A DNA stretch of 64,000 nt from Pseudomonadota bacterium (GCA_043809315.1 JAZDDX010000038.1:14159-78158), one strand, 5' to 3'. Positions 4,837 to 51,160 are shown, counted from the stretch's first letter. Numbers and translations are program-made. Notes: generated from the letters alone by a model not told the origin.

Positions 4837-5806
4837 AGCGATTCCGATCGCGGCTCTTCTGACGCTCTTTACCTCCGCTTCATTCGCGGCGGAGATCACC
4901 GGTCGAGTGGTGGAACGGGCACAAAAAGGGGAGCGGCCGGTGGGAAACCAGTCCGTCCGCCTCCAGATCCTTCGTGGAGAATCCGACCTCCAGTGGGCGG
5001 AGACGAAAACGTCGGCGGATGGCTCCTTCCGTTTCCGCAATCTCGTGCCGGATCGCGAACACATCCACGTCGTTCATCTCGACTATCAGGGGGTCCCGTT
5101 CAGCGCTCTTCCGGTCCGCTTCTCCGAGACCGATCGAACGATCCCCCTCCCCCCGTTTCGCGTTTACCCGGCCGTCGGGAAACCAGATCGGGTCGAAGCG
5201 AACGAGAAGTTGGTGATTGCGAGCGGCCGGGGTGACTCGCTCAAGCTCATCGAAACGATCACGTTCGTCAATCGCGGGGATCGGACCTACACGCCGCGCG
5301 CTCAAGGCGGGGTACCGATCGAGATCTCCCTGATCCGCGGCGGATTCGGCCTCGAACTGCTCGAAGGGTTCACCGAGGATTCGTTCGACATCGACTCCTC
5401 CGGGAACACCCTGCTCTTGAAGAAACCGATCCCCCCCGGCGATGAGAACCGCCTGCGGATCCGGTTTGCGTACTCCCTCCCGTACGAGACAAGAAATCTT
5501 TCGCTCTCGTTCCGGGCGAACATCGCCCGTTCCGGCCTGGACTTGATCCTAACGGGAGGTCCCTCGGGCCTTTCCAGCCTGCAACTCCACGTGCAGCCGA
5601 CGGCCCCGCAGGGGAAGAACGCATCCCGTGTCTATTCCGGAGGACCATTCCCGGCCGGGGAAATCATTCGCGCGGAGCTCACCGGTCTCTGGCCGGCGAA
5701 CCATGTGGGCTTTCTTTTCGTGTCTCTGGGAATTCTCGCGGTCTTCGTTTCGGCTGTCTTCCTTTGGTTCCGGGGCAACCGGAAAGGATCACGAAAGGGC
5801 TCATGA
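4829..5806 (+). CDS. Hypothetical periplasmic protein with N-terminal CarboxypepD_reg-like (transthyretin-like) domain and C-terminal TM anchor, embedded in the ccm operon
   Basis: Signal peptide, ITGRVVE...TSADGSFRFRNL fold signature and a C-terminal hydrophobic helix. It overlaps ccmF by 8 nt and ccmA by ATGA, and contains no cysteine. Confidence 0.55.
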   Translation: MRRAIPIAALLTLFTSASFAAEITGRVVERAQKGERPVGNQSVRLQILRGESDLQWAETKTSADGSFRFRNLVPDREHIHVVHLDYQGVPFSALPVRFSETDRTIPLPPFRVYPAVGKPDRVEANEKLVIASGRGDSLKLIETITFVNRGDRTYTPRAQGGVPIEISLIRGGFGLELLEGFTEDSFDIDSSGNTLLLKKPIPPGDENRLRIRFAYSLPYETRNLSLSFRANIARSGLDLILTGGPSGLSSLQLHVQPTAPQGKNASRVYSGGPFPAGEIIRAELTGLWPANHVGFLFVSLGILAVFVSAVFLWFRGNRKGSRKGS

Positions 5807-6438
5807 GCGGAACCGTTTCCCTTCGGAACGTCACGCGCATCTTCTCCTCGCGGTTCGCCCTGCGCGGGGTGAATCTGGAGGTCGCGCAGGGGGAGGCGGT
5901 GGCGTTGATCGGACCGAACGGGTCGGGGAAGACCACGCTTCTGCGGCTGATCTCCACCCTGCTCCGCCCGACCTCCGGTGAGATCCGGATCTTCGACCGG
6001 AATCCGACCCAAGAAGCGGCGGAGATCCGCCCGAAGATCGGAGTTCTTTTCGTCGAACAGTATCTCTACGGAGATCTGACCGTCCGGGAGAACCTCGAAC
6101 TTCATGCCGAGCTTCATCACATCCCCTCGAAGGAATCGACGATCTCGGGTTGGTTGGAACGGCTGAACCTCCGTCCTTTATCCCCGGAACCGGTGCGAAA
6201 CCTCTCGAAAGGGGAGAGACAGCGAACCGCGCTGACCCGCTGCTTGCTCCACGACCCCCCCCTGCTTCTCTGGGACGAACCGACGAGCGGCTTGGACGAA
6301 GCCGGCCGCACACTCCTGCGCGAGATCGCCCTTGAATCGAAGAGGAAAAAGACGGTGTTGTGCGCGACCCACGATCTCGAATCGATCGCCGGATGGGCCG
6401 ACCGGACGCTCACTCTAGAGGGGGGGCGCCTGCGATGA
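5803..6438 (+). CDS. ccmA: Haem exporter ABC ATPase CcmA
   Basis: Walker A GPNGSGKTT and the ABC signature LSKGERQR followed by LLLWDEPTSGLD. ATG at 5803 overlaps the upstream stop. Confidence 0.8.
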   Translation: MSGTVSLRNVTRIFSSRFALRGVNLEVAQGEAVALIGPNGSGKTTLLRLISTLLRPTSGEIRIFDRNPTQEAAEIRPKIGVLFVEQYLYGDLTVRENLELHAELHHIPSKESTISGWLERLNLRPLSPEPVRNLSKGERQRTALTRCLLHDPPLLLWDEPTSGLDEAGRTLLREIALESKRKKTVLCATHDLESIAGWADRTLTLEGGRLR

Positions 6439-7109
6439 GAGAGTTCTTGCGCGTGGTCCTCACCCTTTCGGAAAAAGATGTCCGTCTCGAGCTCCGCTCC
6501 AAGGAAGCGCTCTACTCGACGCTCCTGTTCGTCGTTCTGACGCTCTTCATCCTCAATTTCAGCTTCGGCTCAGCCGCCGAAACGGTCGAACGCCTCGCTC
6601 CCGGCATCCTCTGGGTCGTGATTTCTTTCGCCGGGACGATCGCCCTCTCTCACCTCGCCTCGCGCGACCGGGAGGACCGGGTGCAGGAGGGGATCCTCCT
6701 GTCGGGCGTCGGCGGAACTGCGATGTTCTGCGCGAAGTTCGTGAGCGCCCTCGTGTTCCTCCTTCTGATCGAGCTGATCACGGTCCCGTTGTTCGTCGTC
6801 TTCTTCAACTTCGACTTCGGAGCGACCCTCCCCCTGTTCCTGTCGGTCCTCGTGCTCGGAACGATCGGGTACGCGGCGGTCGGAACCCTCTTCGCCTCGC
6901 TTCTGTCCCAAACCCGGCTCAAAGAGCTGCTGCTCCCGGTCGTCTTTTATCCGGTGATCATCCCGCTCCTGATCGCCGCGGTTCAAGCCACGGCGAAGGT
7001 GTTGGCGGGAGAATCGGCCCGGGAACTGCTCTTCATGATCGGCTTTGACTTGATCTTGGTCACCGCCTCGGCCCTTCTTTTTGAATACGTGGTGGAGGAT
7101 CCCTCGTGA
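6435..7109 (+). CDS. ccmB: Haem exporter permease CcmB
   Basis: About 6-TM protein starting MREFLRVVLTLSEKDVRLELRS, typical of CcmB. ATGA overlap with ccmA. Confidence 0.8.
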   Translation: MREFLRVVLTLSEKDVRLELRSKEALYSTLLFVVLTLFILNFSFGSAAETVERLAPGILWVVISFAGTIALSHLASRDREDRVQEGILLSGVGGTAMFCAKFVSALVFLLLIELITVPLFVVFFNFDFGATLPLFLSVLVLGTIGYAAVGTLFASLLSQTRLKELLLPVVFYPVIIPLLIAAVQATAKVLAGESARELLFMIGFDLILVTASALLFEYVVEDPS

Positions 7110-7765
7110 AACTGAAACTTTCGGCCATCGCCGCCCTCTTCGTGGCATTCGGAACGATCTTTTTCTATGCGCCGGTCGAGGCGCAGCAGGGGATCGTGCA
7201 GAAAATTTTCTACGTCCATGTCGCCTGCGCCATGACGATGTACGTCGGGTTCGCCACGGCCTTCGTCTCCTCCCTTCTCTATCTCGCCGACCGCCGCGAG
7301 AAATATGACGAAATCGCCGTCTCGGGGGCCGAGGTCGGCTTTTTCTTCTGCACGATCGTTCTCTCAACCGGTCTGGTTTGGGCGAAACCGATCTGGGGGG
7401 CTTGGTGGACCTGGGATCCGCGCCTGACGACGACGCTCCTCGTCTGGCTTCTGTACGCGTCGTATCTCGTCCTTCGCGGATACCTCCGGGACTCGCCGCG
7501 CAAGGGAACGGTGAGCGCCATCGTGGCGATCATCGCCGCACTCGACATTCCGCTCCTCCATTTCTCCGTCCGGATCTGGCGCGGCATGCACCCGACCGTC
7601 GTGTCCGGTCAGGGGGGCGGGATCTCCCCCGCGATGAAGCTCACCCTTCTCGTGACTCTGGGGGCAATGCTTCTCCTCTTCGCGGCTCTCTTTTCCCTCC
7701 GTCTCCGCCTGGAGCGGAGCCGGAACCATCTCGCGCGGATCCAACTCGAACGGCAGGAGGTCTGA
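7106..7765 (+). CDS. ccmC: Haem exporter protein CcmC
   Basis: WWD domain WGAWWTWDPRLTTT in a 219-aa polytopic protein. Confidence 0.85.
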   Translation: MKLKLSAIAALFVAFGTIFFYAPVEAQQGIVQKIFYVHVACAMTMYVGFATAFVSSLLYLADRREKYDEIAVSGAEVGFFFCTIVLSTGLVWAKPIWGAWWTWDPRLTTTLLVWLLYASYLVLRGYLRDSPRKGTVSAIVAIIAALDIPLLHFSVRIWRGMHPTVVSGQGGGISPAMKLTLLVTLGAMLLLFAALFSLRLRLERSRNHLARIQLERQEV

Positions 7766-20192: not shown

Positions 20193-20266
20193 TGGCTCCG
20201 GGACAAGGATTCGAACCTCGATAAGCAGGTTCAGAGCCTGCTGTCCTACCATTAGACGATCCCGGA
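20193..20266 (-). tRNA. tRNA-Gln (anticodon CTG)
   Basis: Manual fold gives a 7-bp acceptor stem TCCGGGA/TCCCGGA, 3-bp D stem, anticodon loop CTCTGAA and T-arm CGAGG-TTCGAAT-CCTTG. The 3' G-CCA end is encoded. Confidence 0.85.
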
Positions 20267-20374: not shown

Positions 20375-20449
20375 GGTCCCATCGTCTAACGGTTAGGACA
20401 TGGCCCTCTCAAGGCTAAAATACGGGTTCGATTCCCGTTGGGACCGCCA
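20375..20449 (+). tRNA. tRNA-Glu (anticodon CTC)
   Basis: Manual fold gives acceptor GGTCCCA/TGGGACC, anticodon stem TGGCC/GGCTA with loop CTCTCAA, T-arm ACGGG-TTCGATT-CCCGT, discriminator G and CCA. Confidence 0.85.
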
Positions 20450-20468
20450 CTTGCAGCTACGTAGAACC
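20437..20468 (+). repeat. Direct repeat copy 1 (tRNA-Glu 3' end plus 19 nt downstream), att-like
   Basis: GTTGGGACCGCCACTTGCAGCTACGTAGAACC recurs at 21682-21713 with one mismatch. Confidence 0.7.
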
Positions 20469-20618
20469 CCACATCACACTAATATTGGGGTCATGGGTAA
20501 CACCCCATCCCTCCGACCAACGACGGAGCCCGGATTGGGATCGCCAAGGACAGCATCGTAGAACCGTGCTTGATCCCAGAACCTCGACAGATCTGAATCC
20601 CTCGGACATGAGAGCCAT

Positions 20619-21608
20619 ATGATTTGGACTCTCTTAATTCTTTTCTTGATCCAGCAAGCATCAGCCGGATCGTTCCCAGGCACCACCACTGACTTTCACG
20701 TGGGCATCAAGACTCTGAAGTTCACAGATGTGGCAAGAACACGAAATATCGATATGCGGATTTGGTACCCCGTCGATACCGTTAACCCGGCCAAGGTGCT
20801 TTTTGATGGACCGGTATTCCTGCCAGTGAACGCGATCGAAGATGCTCCGATCGCAAAGGCACCAACGAAGTTCCCGTTGATCATTCTATCCCACGGCTCC
20901 GGAGGCCTAGGAATTCGGCTTTCGTGGCTTGCAGAGTTCCTTGTCCGGCATGGATACATCGTCGTCACTCTCGATCACCCCGGCAACCGTGCACAGGACA
21001 ACTCGCCGGAAGGCTTAATGCGTGTCTGGGAACGGCCGAAGGACGTGTCGTTTGTGTTGAGTCAAACACTCAAGGACAGGGAATTCGCTAATCACATTGA
21101 CGCGACAAGAATTGGAGCCGCCGGACATTCCGCTGGGGGTACCACGGTCCTTCTCTTGGCAGGAGTGCGCCTCGACAAAAAGAGGCTTGCAAATCCAATA
21201 CCCGGGTGTGCGGGTTCAGATCCGTATTTTCTTCAACTGTGCGAGGGTATGAAGAAACTAAATCCGAAGAAATACGCCACTGAAGACGTTGAATGTTCAT
21301 ATCGCGACGATCGTATACGCGCGGTGGCCTCGTTCGACCCCGGCTTCGGGCCTTCCTTCAACCCCGAAAGCTTCAAATCGGCCAAGACGAAGATACTGGT
21401 TCTTGCTGCCGGAACACTTCATGACCCGGCGGATGAACTGTTCACCGCATCTCTCAGGGATTCCTTGGGTCTCGGAAGTTTCGAATTGATAAAGGAAGCG
21501 GACCACATGACCTTTCTCACGCCTTGTAAACCAGGTGTGGAAGTCACAATTCCTGATGTGGCTGACGTGTGTTGGCGGAGCGTCGATCGGGCTCGCTTAC
21601 AGGAATAA
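20619..21608 (+). CDS. Secreted alpha/beta hydrolase (dienelactone hydrolase / PAF-acetylhydrolase-like), lower-GC gene between the direct repeats
   Basis: Signal peptide, LSHGSGG and GHSAGG (GxSxG) motifs. Codon usage is visibly more AT-rich than the neighbouring genes. Confidence 0.65.
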   Translation: MIWTLLILFLIQQASAGSFPGTTTDFHVGIKTLKFTDVARTRNIDMRIWYPVDTVNPAKVLFDGPVFLPVNAIEDAPIAKAPTKFPLIILSHGSGGLGIRLSWLAEFLVRHGYIVVTLDHPGNRAQDNSPEGLMRVWERPKDVSFVLSQTLKDREFANHIDATRIGAAGHSAGGTTVLLLAGVRLDKKRLANPIPGCAGSDPYFLQLCEGMKKLNPKKYATEDVECSYRDDRIRAVASFDPGFGPSFNPESFKSAKTKILVLAAGTLHDPADELFTASLRDSLGLGSFELIKEADHMTFLTPCKPGVEVTIPDVADVCWRSVDRARLQE

Positions 21609-21681
21609 GTTAGGGCCCGCGTTTTGAAATTCTTTCAAGAATCGCTCTAGCTGGATCTGATGTGGGGTTCAATTATCTACA

Positions 21682-21713
21682 GTTGGGACCGCCACTTGTA
21701 GCTACGTAGAACC
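21682..21713 (+). repeat. Direct repeat copy 2 (degenerate tRNA-Glu 3' end), att-like
   Basis: GTTGGGACCGCCACTTGTAGCTACGTAGAACC, preceded by a degenerate T-loop-like GGGGTTCAATT. Confidence 0.7.
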
Positions 21714-21801
21714 ACCAAGCCCAAAGGCTCAAAGCTCGAGCCGACCACCTCTCCCCTTCTTCTCTGGCTGCACAGGGTCAAGTTGGGTATGCTTTTCCCG
21801 A

Positions 21802-22818
21802 ATGGCACTCAAGATCGGCGGGCTGCTCGTCTCCATGGGCCTTGTGAGCCCCGACAAGGTCGATCAAGCGTTGGAACACCAGAATACACATGGGGGAAGG
21901 TTGGGGTCGATCCTGGTGGGGTTGGGGTTTGTCTCCGACCACGACTTGGCCCGTGTCCTATCCGAACAGCTGCATCTCCCAGCCGCGAAATACGATGAGT
22001 TCAAAGCGATTTCAGAGTCTGCGATCAGGGCCATGTCAGCCGATTTTGTTAAGGAGCACCAGTGTATCCCTCTCGTTCTGCGCCATCGCATCCGCGTGGC
22101 GATCGCCGATCCATGGGAAATCAAGGCAATCAACGAATGGGGATTGCAAAACAGTTTACAGGTACAGATGGTCCTCGCGCCGGAAATCTGGATCATCGCG
22201 GCGATGGAGCGATACTATCGAATCACACGTCCGGACCGCTTCAATGCTGCGGAATCAGCCGAGACTTTGCCTGGAGATGAAAACAAGGGGAGCCGTCCCG
22301 CGGAGGTGATCGCAAACAACACTATCTCCTTTCCGGTTTTTCAAAAACAGCTGGCCGAATCTCGATCCAAGGAGGAAATCTTTGACGTTCTTTTGAACTA
22401 TCTCGCGCCCATCCTCCCCCAGATCGCCGTCTTTGTGCTGCGGAAAGGGTTTGCCGTGGGCTGGCTGGTGCATGGTCTTCCGGTGCGCCCGTCTGTTTTC
22501 GGTAAGATCGAGATCCCCCTTTCGGTTGCGACGTCGTTGGCAACCGTGGTGAATTCCAGGGAGCCCTTCCAAGGCATAATCGCCCAGGATGCCGCCACTC
22601 GAATGAGGTTTGATTTGTTGCAGATCGACCCCGGTCAGCAGATCCGTCTTTGCCCGATTGTGTTCCGCGGCCAGGTCGCCACGGTCTTGCTCGGCATACC
22701 GAATCAACCACTTTCATCCGACCAAGAAAAGGTTGTGTTCCAAGCCTGCGGGAAGATGGAAGCCGCGATCGAAATGCTCGTTTATCGGAAAATTATTCTG
22801 GCCCCCTTCCTGGAATAA
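21802..22818 (+). CDS. MshEN-domain (T2SS GspE N-terminal-like) c-di-GMP-binding protein with uncharacterised C-terminal half
   Basis: RLGSILVGLGFVSDHDLARVLSEQ fits the 24-residue MshEN motif RLGxxLxxxGxVxxxxLxxxLxxQ at every position. Confidence 0.7.
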   Translation: MALKIGGLLVSMGLVSPDKVDQALEHQNTHGGRLGSILVGLGFVSDHDLARVLSEQLHLPAAKYDEFKAISESAIRAMSADFVKEHQCIPLVLRHRIRVAIADPWEIKAINEWGLQNSLQVQMVLAPEIWIIAAMERYYRITRPDRFNAAESAETLPGDENKGSRPAEVIANNTISFPVFQKQLAESRSKEEIFDVLLNYLAPILPQIAVFVLRKGFAVGWLVHGLPVRPSVFGKIEIPLSVATSLATVVNSREPFQGIIAQDAATRMRFDLLQIDPGQQIRLCPIVFRGQVATVLLGIPNQPLSSDQEKVVFQACGKMEAAIEMLVYRKIILAPFLE

Positions 22819-23139
22819 GGACCGCCAATTGAATCAGTAGTTCATCCGTAATGACCTCTATTGGAAACGTCGCCCAACTCGTTCGCGCTGGCGTTCCGCT
22901 CGAGTCTTTCTGGCCTTCAGGTAATGGGGTAGAGAGAGCACTCCGTAACGACCTCAGAGATTTGCACAAGGGATCCGCAACCTTTTTGAAGGCCAGATCC
23001 CTACGGATGAATGTTCCTTTCGGGGATATGGACCGAAAGGTGTGCGAGAAACTCTAACGGGATAAATGTAAGATGGAGGCCGCTCCGGGTCGAAAAAAAC
23101 ACCCGGTCCTGGGCATACGAGAGCCGCGGCAAGAACTTC

Positions 23140-23156
23140 CGTTCGAAATTCGAACG
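23140..23156. promoter_or_regulatory. Perfect 17-bp palindrome CGTTCGAAATTCGAACG about 30 nt upstream of the gatE start
   Basis: 8-bp arms with a 1-nt spacer. It shares the GTTCGAAC core with the tandem repeats at 55128-55171. Confidence 0.3.
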
Positions 23157-23187
23157 AGTACAATGCCGCACCCGGACAAGAACCACG

Positions 23188-25317
23188 ATGCCCGACGCGA
23201 ATCAAAACGGGATCTTCTCCCCCTTGAGCGGAAAACTGCGCGAGCCGGAGTTCTACGAGGCCCTCGGCTTCCGCTCCGGTCTCGAAATCCACCAGCAGCT
23301 CCTGACGGAAAAGAAGCTCTTCTGCCGCTGCCCGGCGGGGAGGTACACCCGGACGCACGACGCGGTGATCCTGCGCCACATGCGTCCCACTCTATCCGAA
23401 CTCGGCGAATACGACGGAACGGCGCTCATGGAGTTCAAGACGAAGAAGGACATCGTCTACCTCCTGAACCGCGAAAACGTCTGCACGTACGAGATGGACG
23501 ACACGCCTCCGTTCCTCATCAACGAGACGGCGATCGACATCGGGATCGAGATCGCACTCCTTCTCAAGTGCCAGATCGTCAACGAGATTCACGTCATCCG
23601 GAAACAGTACCTCGACGGCTCGATCCCCACCGGTTTCCAGCGGACCGCGATCCTCGGAGTGGACGGAAAGATCCCGTTCCGAGGCCGCGAGATCTCGATC
23701 GTTCAACTCGCCGTGGAGGAGGACTCCTGCCGGGAGGTCACCGACGAACGCCACCGGATCACCTTCCGAACGGACCGCCTGAGCATGCCGCTTTCGGAAA
23801 CGGTGACCGGCCCCGACATGCGAACACCCGAGGAGGTGGCGGCCGTCTGTGACCTCCTCGGGCGAGTCGCTCGGGTGACGGGGCACGTGCGCCGGGGGAT
23901 CGGAAGCGTCCGACAGGATGTCAACGTCTCCATCACCGGCGGCCTGCGGGTGGAGATCAAAGGGGTCAGCCGCATCCCTTTTATCCCCGAACTCGTGCAC
24001 AACGAGGCGCTCCGTCAGTCGAGACTCCTCGGAATCCGTGAGCATCTTCGCAGCCTGGCGCTTACGCGGGAAAATCTCGCGGGCGGACAACACGAGGTAC
24101 GGGAGTTCTTGGCGAAGACTTCCGCCCCCCTCCTTCGGAAGGCGGTGAACGAAGGCCTCAGCATCCGGGCGCAGGTGTTGCGCGGATGCCGGAAGGTCTT
24201 GCTCGCGAAGACACAGCCCGGCTTGGTCTTCGCGCAGGAACTCAGCGGGCGCGTGCGCGTGATCGCCTGTCTCGACGACCCGGTGAATCTCTTCGTCCGC
24301 GACGAACCTCACGGATTGGGTCTGGCGCGCCAGCGGTGGGAACAGGCCCCCCGCGATCTTTGCGCGGGCCCCTCCCTGGATGAGTGGAAGCGGCTGGCGA
24401 AGAGACTTCATGTCACGGAGGAGGACGGAGTCGTCCTGACCTTCGGTTCCGCGGAGGACACACTCACGGCCGCGAACGAGATCCGGAACCGGATGGTCGA
24501 GGCTCTCGAGGGGGTCCCCCACGAAACGCGGATGCCGTTCCCCTCCGGCACAACCGACTTCGAACGGATCCTCCCGGGACCGGACCGAATGTATCCCGAC
24601 ACCGACCATCCCCCGGTCGCCCTGAAGGACGAGCGTTTCGCCGAGATCGCCTCCCGCCTTCCCGAACTCCCGTGGACGAGAGAGGCCGCGCTGAAAGAGA
24701 TCGGACTGAACGGGACGGTGATCCGCGCCCTTGCGATCTCCCCCCACTACCCCCTCTTCCGCGAGTTCGTCTCCCGCCCCGGAGGGCGGGCCCGGGCCGC
24801 CGTCCTGGCCTGGCTCTTCGTCGAGCTTCTGAAGTTTCTGCGCCGCGACGGTGTTCCGGTCGAAACCCTCCGGGAGGCCGACCTTCGGTATGTCACGGAG
24901 CTGTATCTTTCGGGCCGGCTGCAACGCGAGGGGCTCCAGATCGTCCTGACACGGCTCGCGAGGCGCCGGGTCGCGATCGCTGGAACCCGGGAGGAAACCG
25001 ACCGCCCGGAGACCGTTCTCGTCGCGATCCTGAAGGAGGAGTTCCCCGAAGTGGCCGAGAAGAAAACGCCGCTCGGTGCGCCGTTCGTCGATCTCCCCCG
25101 TTTGATGGAAACCACGCTTCGCCTGGCATTCCCGGGGGAACCTCAGCGGCTCCGAACGCTCATGGGGGTCGCCATGCACCGGTATCGGGGCGTGGCTCCG
25201 GGTAGAGAGATCGGCCAGGCGGTCGAGGCGTGGTGCAAGAAACACCCGGATCCATCGGCCAAAGAGACCCTCGTGCGACTTTCCGCGCAGGGAAAAAAGG
25301 GAGCGAGGAAGAGATGA
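23188..25317 (+). CDS. gatE: Glutamyl-tRNA(Gln) amidotransferase subunit E, archaeal-type GatE
   Basis: N-terminal GLEIHQQLLTEKKLFCRCPAG is the GatB/GatE family signature. At about 709 aa it has the GatE-type insertion. Its stop overlaps the ATG of an asparaginase-like GatD (ATGA). Confidence 0.8.
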   Translation: MPDANQNGIFSPLSGKLREPEFYEALGFRSGLEIHQQLLTEKKLFCRCPAGRYTRTHDAVILRHMRPTLSELGEYDGTALMEFKTKKDIVYLLNRENVCTYEMDDTPPFLINETAIDIGIEIALLLKCQIVNEIHVIRKQYLDGSIPTGFQRTAILGVDGKIPFRGREISIVQLAVEEDSCREVTDERHRITFRTDRLSMPLSETVTGPDMRTPEEVAAVCDLLGRVARVTGHVRRGIGSVRQDVNVSITGGLRVEIKGVSRIPFIPELVHNEALRQSRLLGIREHLRSLALTRENLAGGQHEVREFLAKTSAPLLRKAVNEGLSIRAQVLRGCRKVLLAKTQPGLVFAQELSGRVRVIACLDDPVNLFVRDEPHGLGLARQRWEQAPRDLCAGPSLDEWKRLAKRLHVTEEDGVVLTFGSAEDTLTAANEIRNRMVEALEGVPHETRMPFPSGTTDFERILPGPDRMYPDTDHPPVALKDERFAEIASRLPELPWTREAALKEIGLNGTVIRALAISPHYPLFREFVSRPGGRARAAVLAWLFVELLKFLRRDGVPVETLREADLRYVTELYLSGRLQREGLQIVLTRLARRRVAIAGTREETDRPETVLVAILKEEFPEVAEKKTPLGAPFVDLPRLMETTLRLAFPGEPQRLRTLMGVAMHRYRGVAPGREIGQAVEAWCKKHPDPSAKETLVRLSAQGKKGARKR

Positions 25318-26720
25318 GCCAGGGCCCGACCGTCGTAACGCACGACCCGCAGCAAGGGTACCGACCGCCTACGCTCGACGTCTTGCGGGAATACGGCGCG
25401 GCGGTCTGGAACGACGTGGAGATCGCAACGAAAAACGGAACGTTCCAGGGGATCATTCTTCCCCGTTCCGAGACCGCCGACGCGAATCACATCGTGATCA
25501 AGCTTCACAACGGCTACAACGTCGGTCTGCGCGCCGATCTCGTCGAGAAGATCACGGTCCGCGGCACCCGGGAAGCCAAATACAAGATCAAGGAGAAGGT
25601 GTTCCCGATCGATCCGGGGAAGCCGGCCGTCAGCCTGCTCGGGACCGGAGGGACGATCGCCAGCCGCCTCGACTACCGGACCGGGGCCGTGATCCCCGCT
25701 TTCTCGCCGGGGGAGCTGTACGGCGCCGTCCCCGAACTGGCGGACCACTGCAACCTGAAAACCAAAAAACTTTTCGGAATCTTCAGCGAGAACATCGCCG
25801 CGGAGCACTGGGTGGCGATGGCCAAGGCGGTCGAAGAGGAGATTCGGGACGGGGCGGACGGCGTGATCATCGGGCACGGCACCGACACCATGCACTATTC
25901 CGCCGCAGCGCTCACGTTCATGGTGCAGAATTCTCCGGTCCCGATCATCTTTGTCGGCTCGCAACGGAGCTCCGATCGCCCTTCTTCGGACGCCGCACTC
26001 AATCTGATCACATCCACCCACGCCGCGGGCCGGTGTGACATCGCCGAGGTGATGGTCTGCATGTTCGGACCGACCTCCGACCAATACGCGCTGCTCCACC
26101 CCGGGACGAGGGTCCGGAAGATGCACTCCTCCTACCGCTCCACGTTCCGCACGATCGGGGACATCCCGCTCGCCACCGTCTCCCCCACCGAGATCAAGCT
26201 ACTCCGGACGGACTACAAGTCGCGCCGGAAGGACCGGAACGTTTCGGTGAACACGGCGTACGACGACCGGGTTTCGATCGTCTACTACTACCCGAACATG
26301 AAGCCGGACATCATCGACTCGCTGGTCGACAACGGCTACCGCGGGATCGTCATCGCCGGGACCGGCTTGGGGCACATCAACAAGCCGCTCTACCCATCGA
26401 TCCGGCGTGCCGTGGAGCGAGGGGTCCACATCTACATGACGGTCGAGACGCTCTGGGGGTACGTGCAGATGTACGTCTACGACACCGGTCGGGACTTGAT
26501 GGAGCTCGGGATCATCCCCGCCGCGAACATGCTCCCGGAGACCGCCTACGTGAAGCTGATCTGGGCGTTGGGGCAGTCGCAGGATCGCGAGAAGGTGAAG
26601 GAGATCATGCTCACGCCGATCTGCCGCGAGATCACGGAACGGGAACCCCACGACGGCTATCTCATCCTCCAGGGGGGGATCCCCGAGGTGCGCGAGATGA
26701 TGTCGCATCTCTGGAAGTAG
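25314..26720 (+). CDS. gatD: Glutamyl-tRNA(Gln) amidotransferase subunit D, GatD (asparaginase-like)
   Basis: About 100-aa N-terminal extension followed by an L-asparaginase fold containing LLGTGGTIAS. Confidence 0.8.
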   Translation: MSQGPTVVTHDPQQGYRPPTLDVLREYGAAVWNDVEIATKNGTFQGIILPRSETADANHIVIKLHNGYNVGLRADLVEKITVRGTREAKYKIKEKVFPIDPGKPAVSLLGTGGTIASRLDYRTGAVIPAFSPGELYGAVPELADHCNLKTKKLFGIFSENIAAEHWVAMAKAVEEEIRDGADGVIIGHGTDTMHYSAAALTFMVQNSPVPIIFVGSQRSSDRPSSDAALNLITSTHAAGRCDIAEVMVCMFGPTSDQYALLHPGTRVRKMHSSYRSTFRTIGDIPLATVSPTEIKLLRTDYKSRRKDRNVSVNTAYDDRVSIVYYYPNMKPDIIDSLVDNGYRGIVIAGTGLGHINKPLYPSIRRAVERGVHIYMTVETLWGYVQMYVYDTGRDLMELGIIPAANMLPETAYVKLIWALGQSQDREKVKEIMLTPICREITEREPHDGYLILQGGIPEVREMMSHLWK

Positions 26721-27070
26721 CGGTTCCAGATCTCGGAAGCGTCCATCTCGGACAGCAGTTTCGGCATGGTTCCCGCTGGGAAAGGGTCGGGAAAGAGCGG
26801 CCGATCCAGCGCCTCTTCGAACAGCGCCATGAGAGGGATCAGCCCGAGCCACGAGAGAGGCCCCCACGCCACCATGATGACGGCGAGGGGAATCGATGTG
26901 CTGATCGTGAGACCGACCTTCAGCCCGAGGTAGGCGTTGGCCGATCCCAGGATCGCACCGTCACGCACCGATTTGGAGAAACGATCGAGAAGCTTCCCCA
27001 GCCGATTCAGTGGCTGTCCGATCTGGGAGGGCAATACATCGCCGAAGAGACGCGGCAGTACGGTCAAGAC
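26657..27070 (-). pseudogene. Remnant of an OPT-family oligopeptide transporter (internally deleted and truncated)
   Basis: AILGSANAYLGLKVGLTISTSIP resembles the N-terminus of the intact OPT at 37976. EMDASEIWNRY resembles its EMSAADIWSRY segment about 250 aa in. The ORF is only 151 aa. Confidence 0.55.
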
Positions 27071-27319
27071 TTGGGCTTCGAGGTCATCAACACGCCGGCC
27101 TACAGTCCGCAATCAAACGGCATGGCCGAGGCCTTCGTGAAGCTGTTCAAGCGGGATTACGTGTACGCCAACGATCTGTGGACGGCGGAGTCGGTGATGC
27201 GGATGGTCCCGGGTTGGTTCGACGACTACAACCGAAACCACCCTCATTCGGGCTTGGATTTTCGGTCGCCGTTGGAGTACAGAAATGAGGCCTTTTTAGA
27301 GCAACAACTGTCCGTTTAA
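27071..27319 (+). mobile_element. C-terminal fragment of a DDE (rve) integrase-type transposase, IS481/IS3-like; 5'-truncated
   Basis: YSPQSNGMAEAFVKLFKRDY and YNRNHPHSGLDFRSPLEY are the conserved C-terminal motifs of rve-family transposases. Only about 80 aa are present. Confidence 0.6.
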
Positions 27320-27582
27320 TTCGGGGTCACTCCACCTCGGGTCGGACTCGGAATCCGACCTGGGAAACCTGATCCCGGAGGGATCGGTAGAGCAACGTCG
27401 ATGATTCCTGTTAAAGAATTCTTCGATCCGCTTCTGCCCGGACAACCCCGCAAATAATAGCCGGTTCGCAATTTTGTTCTGGCCACCGCCCATTCTGCGG
27501 TCCCCTGCGCAAACGCAACCCCTTGAAGTCCCAACATTCCTGTTGCTCGTGGGCTGGACCACGGTTTGCATGAGAGTCCGGC

Positions 27583-29898
27583 ATGCGTGTCCGATCCCTT
27601 CTGGTTGGTGTGTTTTTGATCCTCGGCGGTGCCTGCGGGGATTCGGGGGTGAGTGGCGACCATCATAACGATTCTGTTCGCACGCCGACACCAACCCCGA
27701 CGGCTACTTCGACGGTCAAGCCGGGATCGGCCCGGCTGGTCGTCTCGCCCAGTTCTTTTGACTTCAGCGTGGTCACGACCGGGGATTCTGCGAACCAGGT
27801 CTTCACGGTAACCAACGACGGCTTCGTCCCGGCGACCGGCATGACGTTTTCCTCTCCCTCCGCTCCGTTTTCAATTCAATTCAACAGTTGTGGGGGGACG
27901 TTGGCCGCGGGTTCCAATTGTACGATCGGCTCGCGGTTCGCCCCCTCGGCAGTGAAATCGTTTTCAGTCACGCTGACGATTTCGTACCAGGACGGAAGCG
28001 GCACCTCCGTTCTTCACGTCGTCCTGTCCGGGGAAGGAACGAACGTCATCGCCACCCCGACCGCAACCCCCACGAGAACCCCGACGCCGACCCCCACTTC
28101 CACCGCTTCTCCAACTCCGACGGAGACGCCGATTTCCGGCTCCGATCTGGTGATCTATGACGATAGCCTGGCGCCCGGCTGGAACACCTCCTCTTCCTGG
28201 AGCGTTTCGTCGGTCACCCTCGCCAGCACAGAGCAGGTCTACCAGGGAAATTTCTCGATCAAGTTCGTCTCCTCCGCCACATGGGGGGCCCTTGCCGTCC
28301 AGAATTCCTCGCTTCTGGACCCGGCCCTGTACTCGGCGTTCGAATTTCAAATCCGGATCGCGTCTGTTTCGCAACAGATCCTGGTCGACATTTACAACGG
28401 CGAGACGTTCCTGAATCAGAGGGACTTGGGGACCGTGACGGCGAATTCGTGGCAGAAGATCTCGATCCCGATGGCGACGCTCAATCCGGGATCCGCGCAG
28501 TTCGACCGCCTCGCGATCCTGACCAATACCGCCTCCGGGACGTACTTCGTGGACAACATGCGCCTCGTCAGTTCCGGTTCAAACCCGACGCCGACCCCCA
28601 CTCCGACGAGCACCCCAACGCCAACCCCCACAGCCACTCCGACCGGGCCGACGCCGACTCCCACTCCGACCGGTACCCCCGGGGGGACGAATATCTGGAT
28701 CACGGCCTATCTGGAGTCCTGGAATCTGAACGTTTCCGGTCGTGAGGCCACTCTCGACAGCAAGGTGGGGGTGCCGATCCCGATCGGAAACATCGACTGG
28801 AACGCCTTCACGCATCTGGCTTTCTTCGCGGTCGGCCTGACCTCGGACGGAACAGCCATCGACCACACGGACAACTGGAGCGATGAACGGGTCCAAGCCA
28901 TCGTTCCGGCGGCTCATGGCGGCAATTCCCAAGGGGTTCAGAGACCGATTATCTTCACGATCGGAGGGGAAGGCGGGAGTACCTCGTACATCGGCTCGGA
29001 CACCAGCCGCAGGGCCGCCGTCCAGACCATCATCAATTACATGAACCAGAAGGGGTTCGACGGCGTCGACATCGACATGGAACCGATCGACGATACGCTC
29101 GGATACGTCGCCTTCATCACGCTCCTTCGAAGCGAGTTCGACAAGATGGTCCCGTGGTATCGAGGAGGCGTGAAGTGCCCCGTTCTGACGGCGGCCGTGA
29201 TGGACAATCAGGACGTCGAGGGCACAAGCACCCCCCTATTCAAGTACCTCGAGAACAAGTTCGACCAGATCAACGTCATGTCGTACGACATGGGCGGATA
29301 CGGGAGTCCCGACTGGTCCGTCAGCTGGCACAACGCCGCCCTTTACGTGGCGGACGGAAACGGGAACGTCTTTCCCGCTGATGCGGGGATCAACAGCGAA
29401 GGGATGTCGGTCGCGATTCAGAAGAAGGTGACGGAGAAGATCATGAACCGGGGAAGCACTCCGATCGCGAAAACCAAGCTGGGGCTGGGCATGTCATTCC
29501 ATGGCCACCTCTGGTCGAGTTCCTCCAAGTGTTTCACTTCGCCCCGTCAGCCCTCTTCCGGAGGGTCCCTTACGTACACGAGCTATTCCGAGATCCGGGT
29601 CAACTACATCGACAAGCTCTCCAGCTTTCCGGGGGCTCAGGTGATTTTTGAGTCGAACGAATTCGTCCCGTACGTGAGCATCCCGAGCGCTTCGAACTCG
29701 AATTGCCATTTCATCTCGTACCAGGACGAGAGAACGTTAACGGAGTTGGTGAAGTTCGCCCGGGGGAACTCGACGAGTCATCCGGGGACTCCCTGGGGCG
29801 GGATCATCATCTACGATCTGGGAGAAGGGTATCTGCCGGCCAACTACGCCGTCCGCGATCCGCTCCTCCAGGCGGTCAAAGCCGCGGCGTTCCCGTAA
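27583..29898 (+). CDS. Secreted lipoprotein with ASH/HYDIN-type beta domain, carbohydrate-binding-like domain and GH18 (chitinase-like) catalytic domain, joined by Pro/Thr linkers
   Basis: Signal/lipobox ILGGAC and FDFSVVTTGDSANQVFTVTNDG (ASH-like). The GH18 motif GFDGVDIDMEP matches DGxDxDxE. Pro/Thr-rich (PTPT) linkers. Confidence 0.65.
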   Translation: MRVRSLLVGVFLILGGACGDSGVSGDHHNDSVRTPTPTPTATSTVKPGSARLVVSPSSFDFSVVTTGDSANQVFTVTNDGFVPATGMTFSSPSAPFSIQFNSCGGTLAAGSNCTIGSRFAPSAVKSFSVTLTISYQDGSGTSVLHVVLSGEGTNVIATPTATPTRTPTPTPTSTASPTPTETPISGSDLVIYDDSLAPGWNTSSSWSVSSVTLASTEQVYQGNFSIKFVSSATWGALAVQNSSLLDPALYSAFEFQIRIASVSQQILVDIYNGETFLNQRDLGTVTANSWQKISIPMATLNPGSAQFDRLAILTNTASGTYFVDNMRLVSSGSNPTPTPTPTSTPTPTPTATPTGPTPTPTPTGTPGGTNIWITAYLESWNLNVSGREATLDSKVGVPIPIGNIDWNAFTHLAFFAVGLTSDGTAIDHTDNWSDERVQAIVPAAHGGNSQGVQRPIIFTIGGEGGSTSYIGSDTSRRAAVQTIINYMNQKGFDGVDIDMEPIDDTLGYVAFITLLRSEFDKMVPWYRGGVKCPVLTAAVMDNQDVEGTSTPLFKYLENKFDQINVMSYDMGGYGSPDWSVSWHNAALYVADGNGNVFPADAGINSEGMSVAIQKKVTEKIMNRGSTPIAKTKLGLGMSFHGHLWSSSSKCFTSPRQPSSGGSLTYTSYSEIRVNYIDKLSSFPGAQVIFESNEFVPYVSIPSASNSNCHFISYQDERTLTELVKFARGNSTSHPGTPWGGIIIYDLGEGYLPANYAVRDPLLQAVKAAAFP

Positions 29899-29926
29899 TC
29901 CGTCGAGAGTCTGAGGCGGGGCCATT

Positions 29927-29996
29927 GCCGGAGGATGGCTCAGTTGGGCAGGGAATTGACGCCGTGCGGCCTTTCTTCGACGGTTGACTCCCCCGC
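29927..29996 (+). repeat. Conserved 70-nt element, copy A (upstream of the BNR-like pseudogene)
   Basis: 66/70 nt identical to 33618-33687. Flanks diverge immediately on both sides. Confidence 0.5.
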
Positions 29997-30670
29997 CGAC
30001 ACTTGCTTCACCCACATCCTGTCTCGGCGGCTTGTCGATTTCGACGGACGGCGGTGCAACCTTCACAAACCGAACCACGGCGGACGGGCTCGGGGACAAC
30101 GATGTGAACGGTGTTTTCGCGGTCGGTTCGACGGTCTATGCCGCTACGGATGGCGGCGGCCTGTCAATCTCGACCGATGGCGGAACAACATTTACGACCT
30201 GAACCCTCGCAAGCAATTTTGTAAGAGCCGTTTCCGCAGTTGGCTTGACGGTCTACGCCGCGACGTGGGCCGGTTTATCGATTTCGACGGATGGTGGATC
30301 GATGTTCTCACCCTTCCCCAAAACCACGGCGGATGGACTCGGGGGTTCGGACGCGGGCGACATTTTCGCGATTGGTTCGACGGTCTACGCCGCAACGGGA
30401 AACCTGTCGATTTCGACGGATGCCGGCGCGACATTTACGACCCGAACCACAGCGAACGGTCTCGGAAGCGATCAGGTGGAGAGCGTTTACGCGGTCGGTT
30501 CGACGGTTTACGCCGGAACCTATGATCGTGGCTTGTCGATCTCCCACGACGGCGGTCTGACATTCACACGCCGAACCACGGCGGACGGACTCGGAAGCAA
30601 TTGGGTGTGGAGTATCTTCGCGACCAGCTCGACGGTTTACGTCGGATTGTATCCATACTGCTTTCCTTGA
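29984..30670 (+). pseudogene. Truncated paralogue of the Asp-box/BNR repeat lipoprotein, lacking signal peptide and N-domain, interrupted by an in-frame TGA at 30200-30202
   Basis: GGLSISTDGGATFTNRTTADGLG repeats continue in the same frame across the stop (TFTT*TLASNF...VYAATWAGLSISTDGG). Confidence 0.5.
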
Positions 30671-30831
30671 TCGCCCGCGCTTCCGTCTGACGATCTTCAG
30701 GCTATGCAAATAGTTAAGGGCTCGTGAAGTTCTTGCGCACTTCTTCGGACGGCGACCGAGACATTCTTCTTTAAATACGGTGGGTTGTCTCCCTGGGCCG
30801 CGGGAACGAACCTTGCTTTTCCTTCTTCTAT

Positions 30832-33501
30832 ATGCGGAATCGTCATCTCCTCCAGGCGGCCCTGCTCTCCCTCTCGGCCCTCGCCTGCAGCTCTCAGATT
30901 GATGGCGCCAACCAGCCCCCGTCCTCCTCCGACCTCGCCGTGGCTCTGGCTCCTTCCGCTCCCACCACCGCAGATTTAGTCACGCTCAATGTGAGCTTCG
31001 CCCTTTCGAGCGCGAATTCCGTCGCGCTCTCGGAGATCCGGATTTACGTCAACGACACCGTTCTCAAGACCTGCAGCTTTTCCCCCGCCTGTTCCTCGGC
31101 GTCCTGCCTTTGTGCCAGTAATGCCGTCCATTTCTCAGCCGGCGTGCACACCTACTACGCGACGGCCGTCACGAGTTCCTCTCCCGCGGTGGACTTCTCG
31201 ACGGTGACGGAATCGTTCAACGTCACGAACCCGGGACCGGCATTGCACGGAACCTTGCAGACCTATGCCGTCAACCCGGTCAGCGCCAAAACCACCGCCG
31301 TCGACCGCGAGTTCACGTTCACGACGGGCGTCCGATGCGTGGGTGGAAACTGCGGGAACGTCAGCGCCACGCTCGATCCGACCATCGATCTCGGCGTGAA
31401 AAGCGCCCAGGATGTCACAACGACCGCGGACGGTTCAAGACCCGAGGAGATCTCCGTACTCATTTCCACGGGCCAACTGACCGTTGCAGACGAAAATACG
31501 GTCGACGGAATCTACTCATCCATCTCTCTGGACAACTTTGGATTCACCACCGCTGTCGGAGACCCACAACTCCCGGTCATCCGAAAGAACATTGAAGTTC
31601 CTTTCGGAGCCACCTACGAGCTCATCGTCGGGAACTTCAGCTTCGAGGAACTTCCCTTGAGCGACTTGGGCGTCACCGGAAAACTGATCCCGGTCTTCGA
31701 GTTGGTCCCCTCCCCCATCCGGGGCGACAAAGACCGGCGTCAGTTCAAGATCAATCGCGGGACGTACGCCAGAAACGAATACCTCTTAAACCAGATCGCG
31801 AAAGTAACCTCCGAGGGCGTTCTTCGAGGACACCGGTACGTTTCCATCGAAGTCTTCCCCGTCGACTACAACCCGGTCACTAACAAGGTCAAGGTCTACC
31901 GGACGCTCACGCTCAAGATCTCCCTCAAGAACTCGGATCTCATCCGGACCCAGGAGCAGACCCGAAAGTACGATTCTCCCGCCTTTGCTCCGGTGAGCCA
32001 GAGTCATTTCCTCGAGTACACCGCGAACCCCTATCGTGCCACTTCCCTTGCGGTTTCGAGGGGCAAGGGGAGCAGCCTCCCGAACTATCTGATCATCACC
32101 GCGCCCGCTTTCAAATCGAACGTGATGTTGGCGCAATTCGTGACGGAACGATCCAAGACGTTCAACGTTTCCCTGGTCGATACGACCCAGACCGGGGGGT
32201 CGACCAAGGAACAGATTCAGACGTACATCAAGAACGCATATCTGGGCATGAATCCTCCAACCTACGTTCTCCTCGTCGGAGACACGGACACCATTCCCGG
32301 ATGGTCGGGAAACAGTGCGAAGACGGACCTGAGCTATTCCACCGTAGACGGATCCGATCTTGTGCCCGACGTTTTTCTGGGCAGGTTCTCCGTCCGGACG
32401 CAGGAACACCTAAACAACATCATTACGAAGACATTGGCGACCAGCAATCTGAAGAAAGCGGGCATCACGGCCTCGGCCGACAAATCCTCCGTGACCGAAG
32501 GCACGGCCAATTGGGTGATCCAGAACTACTTCGCTCCGAACGGCTTTCAGACCGCGACGATTTTCGGCCGGTTGGGTGAGGGATATTCCAAAACCATCAG
32601 TGTCATCAACGGTGGCGTCACATTCTTCAACCATAACGGTCATGGAGCTCCCCAAGCCTGGCTGGATCCGGCCTTTGATACGTCGGATTTCGACCAACTG
32701 ACGAACACGGTCTATCCCTTGCTGCTGGCAAATGCGTGCGACTCCGGGGATTACTTCGACTATACGGAGGCGTTCGCCGAGACCTTCACGATCTATCCCA
32801 CAGGCGCGGCCGTTTATATCGGCTCATCCACCACTTCTTCCTGGAACGAGGACGACGTCTTTACAAAGGCGTTTATGCCGGTTCTCTTTGATGCGAACTT
32901 GAACTCCGCCGCCGCTGCCATGAACGCAGCAAAAGCTGCGGTCGCCGCAAAGTACAGCAATTCAGCCCAAAGATACTATGAGGAGTACAACCTGCTTGGA
33001 GATCCTTCGAGAACCCTGTTAGGGGCGAACGTTACCCCGCCTCCGACCACGCCGACCCCCACACCTACCGCCACTCCGACTCGTACTCCGACGCCGACAC
33101 CGACCCCGACCCGCACTCCCACCCCAACCGCGACGCCGACTGGCCCAACACCCACTCCGACCGCGACGCCGACTCGTACCCCGACACCGAACGGCCCGAC
33201 GCCGACTCCGACCGCCACTCCGACTCAAACTCCAACGCCCACCCCCACCCCGGTTCCCGCGAAAGGCGTCATCCCGATGAACTCGGGTTCTCCCTTCTAC
33301 ACCACCAGCCAGAACCCGGTGGCTCCGTCCGATCTCAGTTGCCTGAAGAACATGAAGGAGGGAAGCACCTGCGAACAGACCTGGACGGTGAAAGTGACGG
33401 GCGGACGTGGCGCCACGTTCGACTTTTTCACGATCTACAACTCGGACGCATCCGGCGTGAGTGAAGTCCAGACGACGTCAATTCCAATAACGGTCCAATA
33501 A
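30832..33501 (+). CDS. Peptidase family C25 (gingipain-like cysteine peptidase) lipoprotein with Pro/Thr-rich linker and C-terminal domain
   Basis: Signal/lipobox [22 protein letters not shown], the His motif [11 protein letters not shown] and the Cys motif [10 protein letters not shown] are present. The PT linker is [11 protein letters not shown]. Confidence 0.65.
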
Positions 33502-49940: not shown

Positions 49941-49965
49941 CTTTGGTCCCCTCGTCGTCCGACGA

Positions 49966-51150: not shown

Positions 51151-51160
51151 ATGACCCCCT

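Follow-up and report, generated by a model that had tools for sequence, protein, structure and literature searches.

A gatE-gatD operon in a bacterial genome, probably resident and belonging to a bacterial GatDE clade

The window considered here is a stretch of 64,000 nucleotides from a metagenome-assembled genome (MAG) labelled 'Pseudomonadota bacterium' (GCA_043809315.1, JAZDDX010000038.1:14159-78158). At 23188-26720 it carries adjacent genes for GatE and GatD, the two subunits of the amidotransferase GatDE. This enzyme has been published as exclusively archaeal, reviews up to 2022 included (PMC8762117, PMC9499178, PMC2811023), a view which the first-pass annotation of the window, made from the sequence alone, reported correctly. 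The locus raises the question of how the pair came to lie in a bacterial chromosome, and whether it was imported laterally from archaea, as that annotation suggested, or belongs to its host. The genes are probably a resident gatE-gatD operon of a bacterial GatDE clade, inherited with the lineage and not imported by the tRNA-associated cassette or the insertion sequence (IS) that lie nearby.

The gatE gene (23188-25317, plus strand) encodes a protein of 709 residues that belongs to the GatE family. Two NCBIfam GatE equivalog models score above their cut-offs (NF003107, 476 bits against 456; TIGR00134, 385 bits against 320), and the best of the GatB models gives 127 bits where 338 is the cut-off, all GatB models staying at or below 127 bits with cut-offs of at least 315. 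Pfam GatB_N matches residues 31-482 with 159 bits; these 452 residues span only 271 profile positions, and the large GatE insertion is therefore present. The closest PDB chains are 1zq1_C (Pyrococcus abyssi) and 2d6f_C (Methanothermobacter thermautotrophicus), and the GatB chain 3h0l_B scores 83 bits. The cradle motifs are intact, namely GLEIHQQL (residue 31), EEDSCRE (177), RRGIGSVRQDVNVS (235) and EIKGV (256), and RQDVNVS is conserved alongside GLEIHQQL, EEDSCRE and EIKGV. The predicted domains are a cradle, a large insertion domain, a helical domain and a YqeY-like tail, as expected of the tRNA-binding kinase and amidation subunit of GatDE. The NCBIfam GatE models align only to position 551 of 630 on the window protein, and Pfam GAD (PF02938), which is matched in some relatives, has no match in it. 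A profile of bacterial GatE aligns through to the end of both 1zq1_C and 2d6f_C. The tail motif LMG-x-AM...RG-x-A-x-G is common to the window and archaeal GatE, and the window tail has a lineage-specific insertion. With its length the protein falls in a long-form sublineage of 679-739 residues, which has an insertion of about 20 residues and an extended tail in common; the extra loops set the window GatE and the proteins P0002, P0005, P0006 and P0008 apart from other bacterial GatE.

The gatD gene (25314-26720, plus strand) encodes 468 residues, the asparaginase-fold amidase subunit that would supply ammonia. The Pfam models GatD_N (PF18195), Asparaginase (PF00710) and Asparaginase_C (PF17763) all match above cut-off, and two GatD equivalogs are passed with a wide excess (NF003217, 522 bits against 310; a second model, 516 bits against 324). 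The closest PDB chains again come from 1ZQ1 and 2D6F, with 423 bits for 1zq1_A. The nucleophile T114 and the triad T190-D191-K269 are present, each of these residues being kept in 137-140 of 141 aligned GatD sequences. The two open reading frames (ORFs) are co-directional, and the ATG of gatD (25314) overlaps the TGA of gatE (25315-25317) as ATGA. From this overlap, which recurs in relatives such as locus L082, gatD appears to be translationally coupled to gatE. Upstream of gatE no leader RNA, T-box or promoter was recognized (nothing in Rfam, a fold z-score of -1.0, no sigma-70-like sites). The NCBI gene calls MFH1263851.1 (709 residues) and MFH1263852.1 (468 residues), made on the 113,412-bp contig of the same MAG, are identical in start, length and sequence, and bear the names GatE and GatD. 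By family profile, catalytic residues and matches to structure chains the pair is a true GatE and GatD. The first-pass annotation had read the same things from the sequence: a GatE with the GLEIHQQL signature and a GatE-sized insertion, coupled through ATGA to an asparaginase-fold GatD with an N-terminal extension. Both readings hold. The opposite assignment, a GatB followed by a type I asparaginase devoid of the GatD N-domain, was also checked, and GatE and GatD profiles were found together with GatD_N.

The pair is far from alone among bacteria. Peptides from the window GatD were scanned against one genome per GTDB species, and at least 589 species genomes contain a GatD relative. The best 80 of these 589 or more are 68-72% identical to the window GatD and are all labelled bacterial; they carry about 15 phylum-level labels, a count that is approximate because several MAG labels look unreliable. 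Represented are Aminicenantes, Ignavibacteria/Melioribacter, Bacteroidota, Latescibacteria, Fermentibacteria, Aegiribacteria, Zixibacteria, Calditrichia, Cloacimonetes, Krumholzibacteriota and Neomarinimicrobiota, and several of the best 80 lie on contigs of 1-2 Mb. For GatE, every name given among the 120 best matches in a collection of 5.8 billion proteins is bacterial (Gemmatimonadota, Aminicenantes, Eisenbacteria, Acidobacteriota, Elusimicrobiota, Planctomycetota and Polyangia among them). In about 73 of 80 loci gatE immediately precedes gatD, both being on one strand, and when ORFs were clustered over 83 loci only these two genes were broadly common, any other family occurring in at most 12. 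The two subunits give congruent nearest relatives. On the sequences sampled, the bacterial GatDE clade appears large and monophyletic, fixed in the order gatE-gatD and separate from the archaeal GatDE sampled. Across this clade GatD is 68-77% and GatE 45-65% identical to the window proteins, and the annotation by NCBI and JGI is the same, their pipelines naming hundreds of bacterial proteins GatD and GatE. The window pair falls inside the clade, which also includes Gemmatimonadota and Planctomycetota, and differs from its other members in the long GatE, in the absence of an adjacent glnA or asnA, and in a host that is probably Bdellovibrionota-like and not of the FCB group. No second GatB/E-like gene was found in any locus examined (up to 10 kb on each side).

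In some relatives the neighbourhood is concerned with amides. In seven loci (L082, L083, L002, L008, L009, L024 and L066) gatE has a glutamine-synthetase-like gene as its direct upstream or divergent neighbour, and asnA, for aspartate-ammonia ligase, adjoins gatD or gatED in three of 86 (L082, L085 and L086). The neighbourhoods of this kind span 7331-13479 in L082, 8553-13189 in L083, 10001-12657 in L085 and 502-3829 in L086. Since one or the other gene adjoins gatED in these relatives, a role in amide metabolism or supply fits the operon; in the window neither glnA nor asnA is present next to gatED.

Several peculiarities were seen among the relatives. Near-identical Ignavibacteria-type loci are found in GatD-bearing genomes with the doubtful labels 'Eubacteriales', 'Hyphomicrobiales', 'Ectothiorhodospiraceae' and 'Patescibacteria'. 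Locus L085, on a bacterial contig that encodes a protein with a type IX secretion system (T9SS) tail, has at 5671-7623 a GatE-like gene, separated from gatD by two genes, in which the motifs are degenerate (AAVVIRQPL for GLEIHQQL, RGDIRLAV for RQDVNVS); its product may be an inactive or repurposed GatE. In protein P0123 (943 residues) a truncated GatE cradle domain is joined with an entire GatD, and in P0274 (606 residues) GatD is joined with an archease domain. These may be natural fusions, or artefacts of assembly or gene calling. A transfer-messenger RNA gene is immediately beside gatED in two unrelated bacterial loci (L023, 11782-12132; L084, 7554-7903), and a tRNA-Arg(CCT) gene lies 8-10 kb downstream in five Aminicenantes-type loci, a case of lineage synteny.

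A phylogeny of GatD was built from the window sequence, 121 full-length representatives of 50%-identity clusters, 15 labelled bacterial locus GatDs and two archaeal sequences from PDB (neighbour-joining, 100 bootstraps, rooted with an asparaginase-like sequence). The bacterial locus GatDs are 71-77% identical to the window GatD and the next representative, P0122, is 58% identical, against 48-49% for Pyrococcus and Methanothermobacter (PDB) and 43-46% for representatives named Thermococcus, Desulfurococcaceae, Nitrososphaerota and Bathyarchaeia. The core bacterial clade has a bootstrap of 99%, and a broader clade, enlarged by P0122, P0125 and P0202, has 93%. The genes around P0122 and P0202 are bacterial (a lipopolysaccharide heptosyltransferase accompanied by a GerE-type regulator, and a Por_Secre_tail protein of the T9SS); the bacterial origin of P0125 is unconfirmed, because its 4.5-kb contig shows only asnA nearby. 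The nearest relatives of the window are P0006 (locus L081) and P0008 (locus L002), with bootstraps of 72% and 84%, and the window groups with both for both subunits. These results speak against the lateral import of an archaeal GatDE at this locus, for which the annotation had itself named a phylogeny as the check. The next sister group has 61% support and includes one protein labelled Sigynarchaeota (Asgard), from contig L087, on which no archaeal marker genes were found; the label may result from wrong binning, or the lineage may be that of a donor or recipient. In the rooted tree the bacterial clade lies among archaeal lineages, a position that would be compatible with one ancient transfer from archaea to bacteria, the direction not being established by these sequences.

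Comparison with the archaeal enzymes of 2D6F and 1ZQ1 shows the same two-subunit architecture, with GatD_N and an asparaginase fold in one subunit, a cradle, an insertion domain, a helical domain and probably a YqeY-like tail in the other, the same catalytic Thr and Thr-Asp-Lys, and the same equivalog hidden Markov models (HMMs) passed by both window subunits. The archaeal GatE, of 619-633 residues, is shorter than the window protein, which has extra loops and a longer tail; GatE is about 30-33% identical to the archaeal GatE of loci L088 and L089, and GatD 48-49% identical to its archaeal counterparts. Gene order differs as well. In these two clearly archaeal loci (L088, 2673-5922; L089, 10001-13286; Nitrososphaerota and Desulfurococcaceae), which lie among genes for TFIIE, fibrillarin/Nop5 and thermosome, gatD precedes gatE, whereas in the bacterial loci and in the Sigynarchaeota-labelled L087 (235-3586) gatE precedes gatD, as in the window with its ATGA. 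Bacterial and archaeal GatE differ most clearly in the N-terminal cradle segment RPTLSELGEYDGTALMEFKTK and the YLDGSIP motif, and in the insertion domain, where a bacterial RVRVIACLD stands against an archaeal GI(F/I)HTDE-type motif.

That the host is a bacterium, as the annotation had taken it to be, is borne out by the genes on both sides of gatED, which encode CcmF/A/B/C, PilZ, MshEN, ExbB/TolQ and BamD-like TPR proteins, and by CcmF itself, whose best named relatives (52-63% identity) are MAGs of Bdellovibrionales, Bdellovibrionota and 'Pseudomonadota'. The host is probably Bdellovibrionota-like. The archaeal host that GatDE is supposed to have is thus not found here, the supposition being a taxonomic generalization and not a molecular one, and one to which the 589 or more genomes with a relative run counter. 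The contig that encodes P0006, of 2,922,492 bp, also encodes a CcmF that is 55% identical to the window CcmF and ranks 12th among 8000. Two unlinked genes, the GatE subtype and CcmF, point to the same related genome, as vertical inheritance predicts.

For the reaction the model is the homologous enzyme of archaea (PMC2330236, PMC9499178), in which a GatD dimer binds two GatE subunits, and the window proteins would be arranged likewise. A glutamyl-tRNA synthetase (GluRS) of the non-discriminating kind would supply Glu-tRNA(Gln), and GatE would bind its acceptor end, T-arm and D-loop. GatD would hydrolyse glutamine or asparagine at the Thr/Thr-Asp-Lys site and so release ammonia, and GatE would phosphorylate the glutamyl side chain with ATP and then amidate it, giving Gln-tRNA(Gln). 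What the enzyme acts on in vivo, where its amide comes from, and whether it replaces or coexists with GatCAB or glutaminyl-tRNA synthetase (GlnRS) are inferred by analogy. Bacterial GatCAB (Staphylococcus aureus, PDB 3IP4) carries out the same overall reaction on a U1-A72 Glu-tRNA(Gln) and excludes tRNA-Glu by D-loop size, and its GatB is a paralogue of GatE. GatDE differs from it in having no GatA amidase and no GatC, in its asparaginase-fold subunit as ammonia donor, and in a GatE without the 3_10 turn by which GatB reads U1-A72 and apparently without the Lys-rich tail motif (PMC2811023), and the GatB HMMs stay far below their cut-offs.

The presumed substrate class is represented in the window by a tRNA-Gln(CUG) gene (20193-20266, minus strand), which is not linked to gatED in relatives. 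It was recovered by ARAGORN and Rfam with a full cloverleaf, and has U1-A72, G73, an encoded CCA and a D-loop of 7 nt. A tRNA-Glu(CUC) gene (20375-20449, plus strand), recovered in the same way, has G1-C72 and a D-loop of 8 nt. The difference in D-loop size fits the rule that both types of amidotransferase reject tRNA-Glu through an extra D-loop base (PMC2330236). The first base pair presents a harder case. The Methanothermobacter GatDE recognizes A1-U72 in tRNA-Gln, and archaeal GatDE uses this pair partly to reject tRNA-Asn (PMC2330236); bacterial GatB reads U1-A72 via its 3_10 turn, which GatE does not have (PMC2811023). As the local tRNA-Gln has U1-A72 and the archaeal GatDE studied reads A1-U72, archaeal substrate recognition is not simply transferable. 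Beside the first base pair the window GatE keeps a short basic loop, TGHVRRG, which replaces the GatB turn as in archaeal GatE. This loop was considered as a bacterial signature and rejected, the pattern TGK-V-R/K-RG occurring in both bacteria and archaea (L088, L089).

Five points weigh against a resident, functioning GatDE of the kind described. The tRNA-Gln in the window (one isoacceptor) is of the bacterial type, with U1-A72 and G73, where the archaeal GatDE studied recognizes A1-U72. The Pfam tail model GatB_Yqey is unmatched in the window GatE at E<=0.001. The flanks are not syntenic with those of the nearest relatives, and gatED may have been rearranged locally or relocated; a tblastn search of the window flanks against 83 loci gave no synteny beyond gatE and gatD. 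The deep nodes of the GatD tree, a neighbour-joining tree only, are without support. Finally, no report of activity was found for any bacterial GatDE.

The rival that survives best accepts the pair as a genuine GatDE and gives it an altered or broadened specificity: action on Asp-tRNA(Asn) as well or instead, asparagine derived from AsnA as the donor, or service as a conditional second enzyme beside GatCAB. The local tRNA-Gln's first base pair, which is U1-A72 and not the A1-U72 of the archaeal substrate (PMC2330236), is in its favour, as are the asnA genes next to gatD or gatED in L082, L085 and L086, the divergent insertion-domain motifs of bacterial and archaeal GatE, and the reported ability of the Methanothermobacter enzyme to take its amide from glutamine as well as asparagine (PMC2330236). 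The tail of the window protein nevertheless appears to be of GatE type without the Lys-rich GatB motif (PMC2811023), the basic loop by the first base pair does not differ from that of archaeal GatE, the linkage to asnA is confined to the three loci in 86, and direct evidence of an alternative substrate is absent. Bacterial tRNA-Asn also carries U1-A72, and a broader specificity is possible for this reason. As a replacement for the ordinary reading of the operon this explanation is considered unlikely.

The annotation had proposed instead that the whole tract 20375-27319, from the tRNA-Glu gene to a transposase fragment, is a candidate mosaic island. As a rival explanation this would be a recent island, integrated at the tRNA-Glu gene and delivering an archaeal GatDE. 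Several of the features on which this rests are real. The tRNA-Gln and tRNA-Glu genes exist as described above. A direct repeat of 32 nt, made up of the last 13 nt of tRNA-Glu and 19 nt downstream, lies at 20437-20468 (plus strand) and recurs at 21682-21713 (plus strand) with 31 of 32 nt matching and a partial T-arm copy before it, as an attachment-site-like (att-like) right boundary. The two matches in the window compare with none expected from shuffles, and a degenerate copy (75%) is found at 20534-20565. A C-terminal fragment of an IS3-family transposase (82 residues, an IS scar) lies on the plus strand at 27071-27319, 350 bp downstream of gatD; it matches the rve_3 profile over positions 2-67 of 67 and the IS3 model only over 304-369 of 369, that is, the last 66-80 residues or so, and by blastn it finds IS3 transposases over only about 90-160 bp. 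The content of guanine and cytosine (GC) drops to about 0.54 over 19-23 kb, and the non-syntenic flanks would also suit a recent arrival.

These features do not extend to gatED. The repeats enclose 20450-21713 only, about 1.25 kb with a single gene, for an alpha/beta-hydrolase (PAF-AH/PETase-like by Pfam; 20619-21608, plus strand). Repeat copy 2 lies upstream of gatED, which is accordingly outside the cassette: the gatE start (23188) is some 1.5 kb past the right-hand repeat, beyond a bacterial-type gene for an MshEN-domain protein (21802-22818, plus strand) that is not conserved beside gatED elsewhere. A further copy with three mismatches or fewer is not present in the 64-kb window, so that a third copy bounding gatED is lacking; a 17-nt tRNA-Gln-like match at 27371-27387 was examined as such a copy and rejected, being at the level of other chance matches. 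No integrase was found at 19-28 kb, where the IS3 fragment is the sole mobility feature. In composition the hydrolase gene is foreign and alone in the tract stands out clearly, its GC content at third codon positions (GC3) being 0.56 and its codon fit -1.31, the worst of 35 genes. The corresponding values are 0.81 and -0.98 for gatE and 0.88 and -0.88 for gatD, and other window genes typically have GC3 0.70-0.83 and codon fits of -0.86 to -1.25. With codon fits within or better than the host range, gatE and gatD are among the best-fitting genes of the window. The nearest homologues are bacterial, with 57-77% identity against 43-49% for archaeal ones, and a related genome has the same GatE subtype.

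Nor is the proximity of the tRNA genes, to which the annotation had pointed, conserved. In 86 related loci, covered up to 10 kb to either side of gatED, tRNA-Gln is found in none and tRNA-Glu in one (L080), and the proximity in the window is for this reason treated as coincidental. An island of this extent is thus very unlikely, and the proposal is already largely refuted: of the att-like repeats it is their existence that stands, not their bounding of gatED. The cassette at 20437-21713 looks like a remnant of integration and excision at tRNA-Glu, and this real but tiny cassette and the IS scar happen to lie near a resident operon. Given the limits of the cassette, the composition, the bacterial clade and the subtype in the related genome, any transfer from archaea would be ancient and clade-wide and would not have occurred at this locus. 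A last rival, an artefact in which archaeal gatED DNA was joined to or binned with bacterial contigs, might appeal to the loose label of the source MAG and to the clearly unreliable labels in the match lists ('Eubacteriales', 'Patescibacteria'), but it is scarcely credible, as gatED is flanked on both sides by bacterial genes inside a 64-kb window whose composition is uniform, relatives occur on bacterial contigs of 1.3-5 Mb, and no archaeal GatDE sampled comes close to these sequences.

For the locus itself, the result is mostly corrective, since these are ordinary resident genes already named GatE and GatD by NCBI and not the product of a fresh transfer between domains. The window pair is a new long-form member of a known family, whose bacterial clade is present in databases and undiscussed in the literature searched. 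No paper describing bacterial GatDE was found in the full-text literature searched, most subscription journals being outside that search, and the papers on the genomes of Melioribacter and Caldithrix make no mention of it. A wider proposal, with the odds about even, is that GatDE is not an archaeal signature and that hundreds of bacterial species rely for Glu-tRNA(Gln) amidation on a monophyletic bacterial lineage of it, with the order gatE-gatD and a GatD about 70% identical over more than a dozen phyla, adapted to U1-A72 without the 3_10 turn of GatB. This lineage may act on Asp-tRNA(Asn) too. Having adapted without that turn, bacterial GatDE would either read the first pair in a way that neither known system does, or not read it. 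The window enzyme would be one of the long-form members, and its host may have no other way to make Gln-tRNA(Gln). The archaea-only view underlies evolutionary arguments on co-evolution with an A1-U72 tRNA-Gln and on the absence of GlnRS from archaea, and the large bacterial GatDE clade of public genomes, which would work with a bacterial-type tRNA-Gln, contradicts the textbook generalization. The bacterial enzymes would also offer an experimental handle on how amidotransferases read the first base pair and on when GatDE displaces GatCAB.

The remainder of the window contains other genes of note. At 7925-14880 (minus strand) a protein of 2025 residues combines RHS repeats with FG-GAP repeats and a TcdB-mid-N region, and adjoins an SpvB-domain protein; together they are a Tc-toxin or RHS-like polymorphic toxin locus. 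A gene run at 46696-53041 (minus strand) encodes proteins with thrombospondin type-3 repeats (TSP_3, TSP3_bac, VWA), followed by an FHA-domain protein. Downstream of gatED, at 27583-33501, a GH18 protein with long Pro-Thr linkers adjoins a C25 (gingipain-like) peptidase with a propeptide, and these linkers account for the short tandem-like repeats at 27682-28103.

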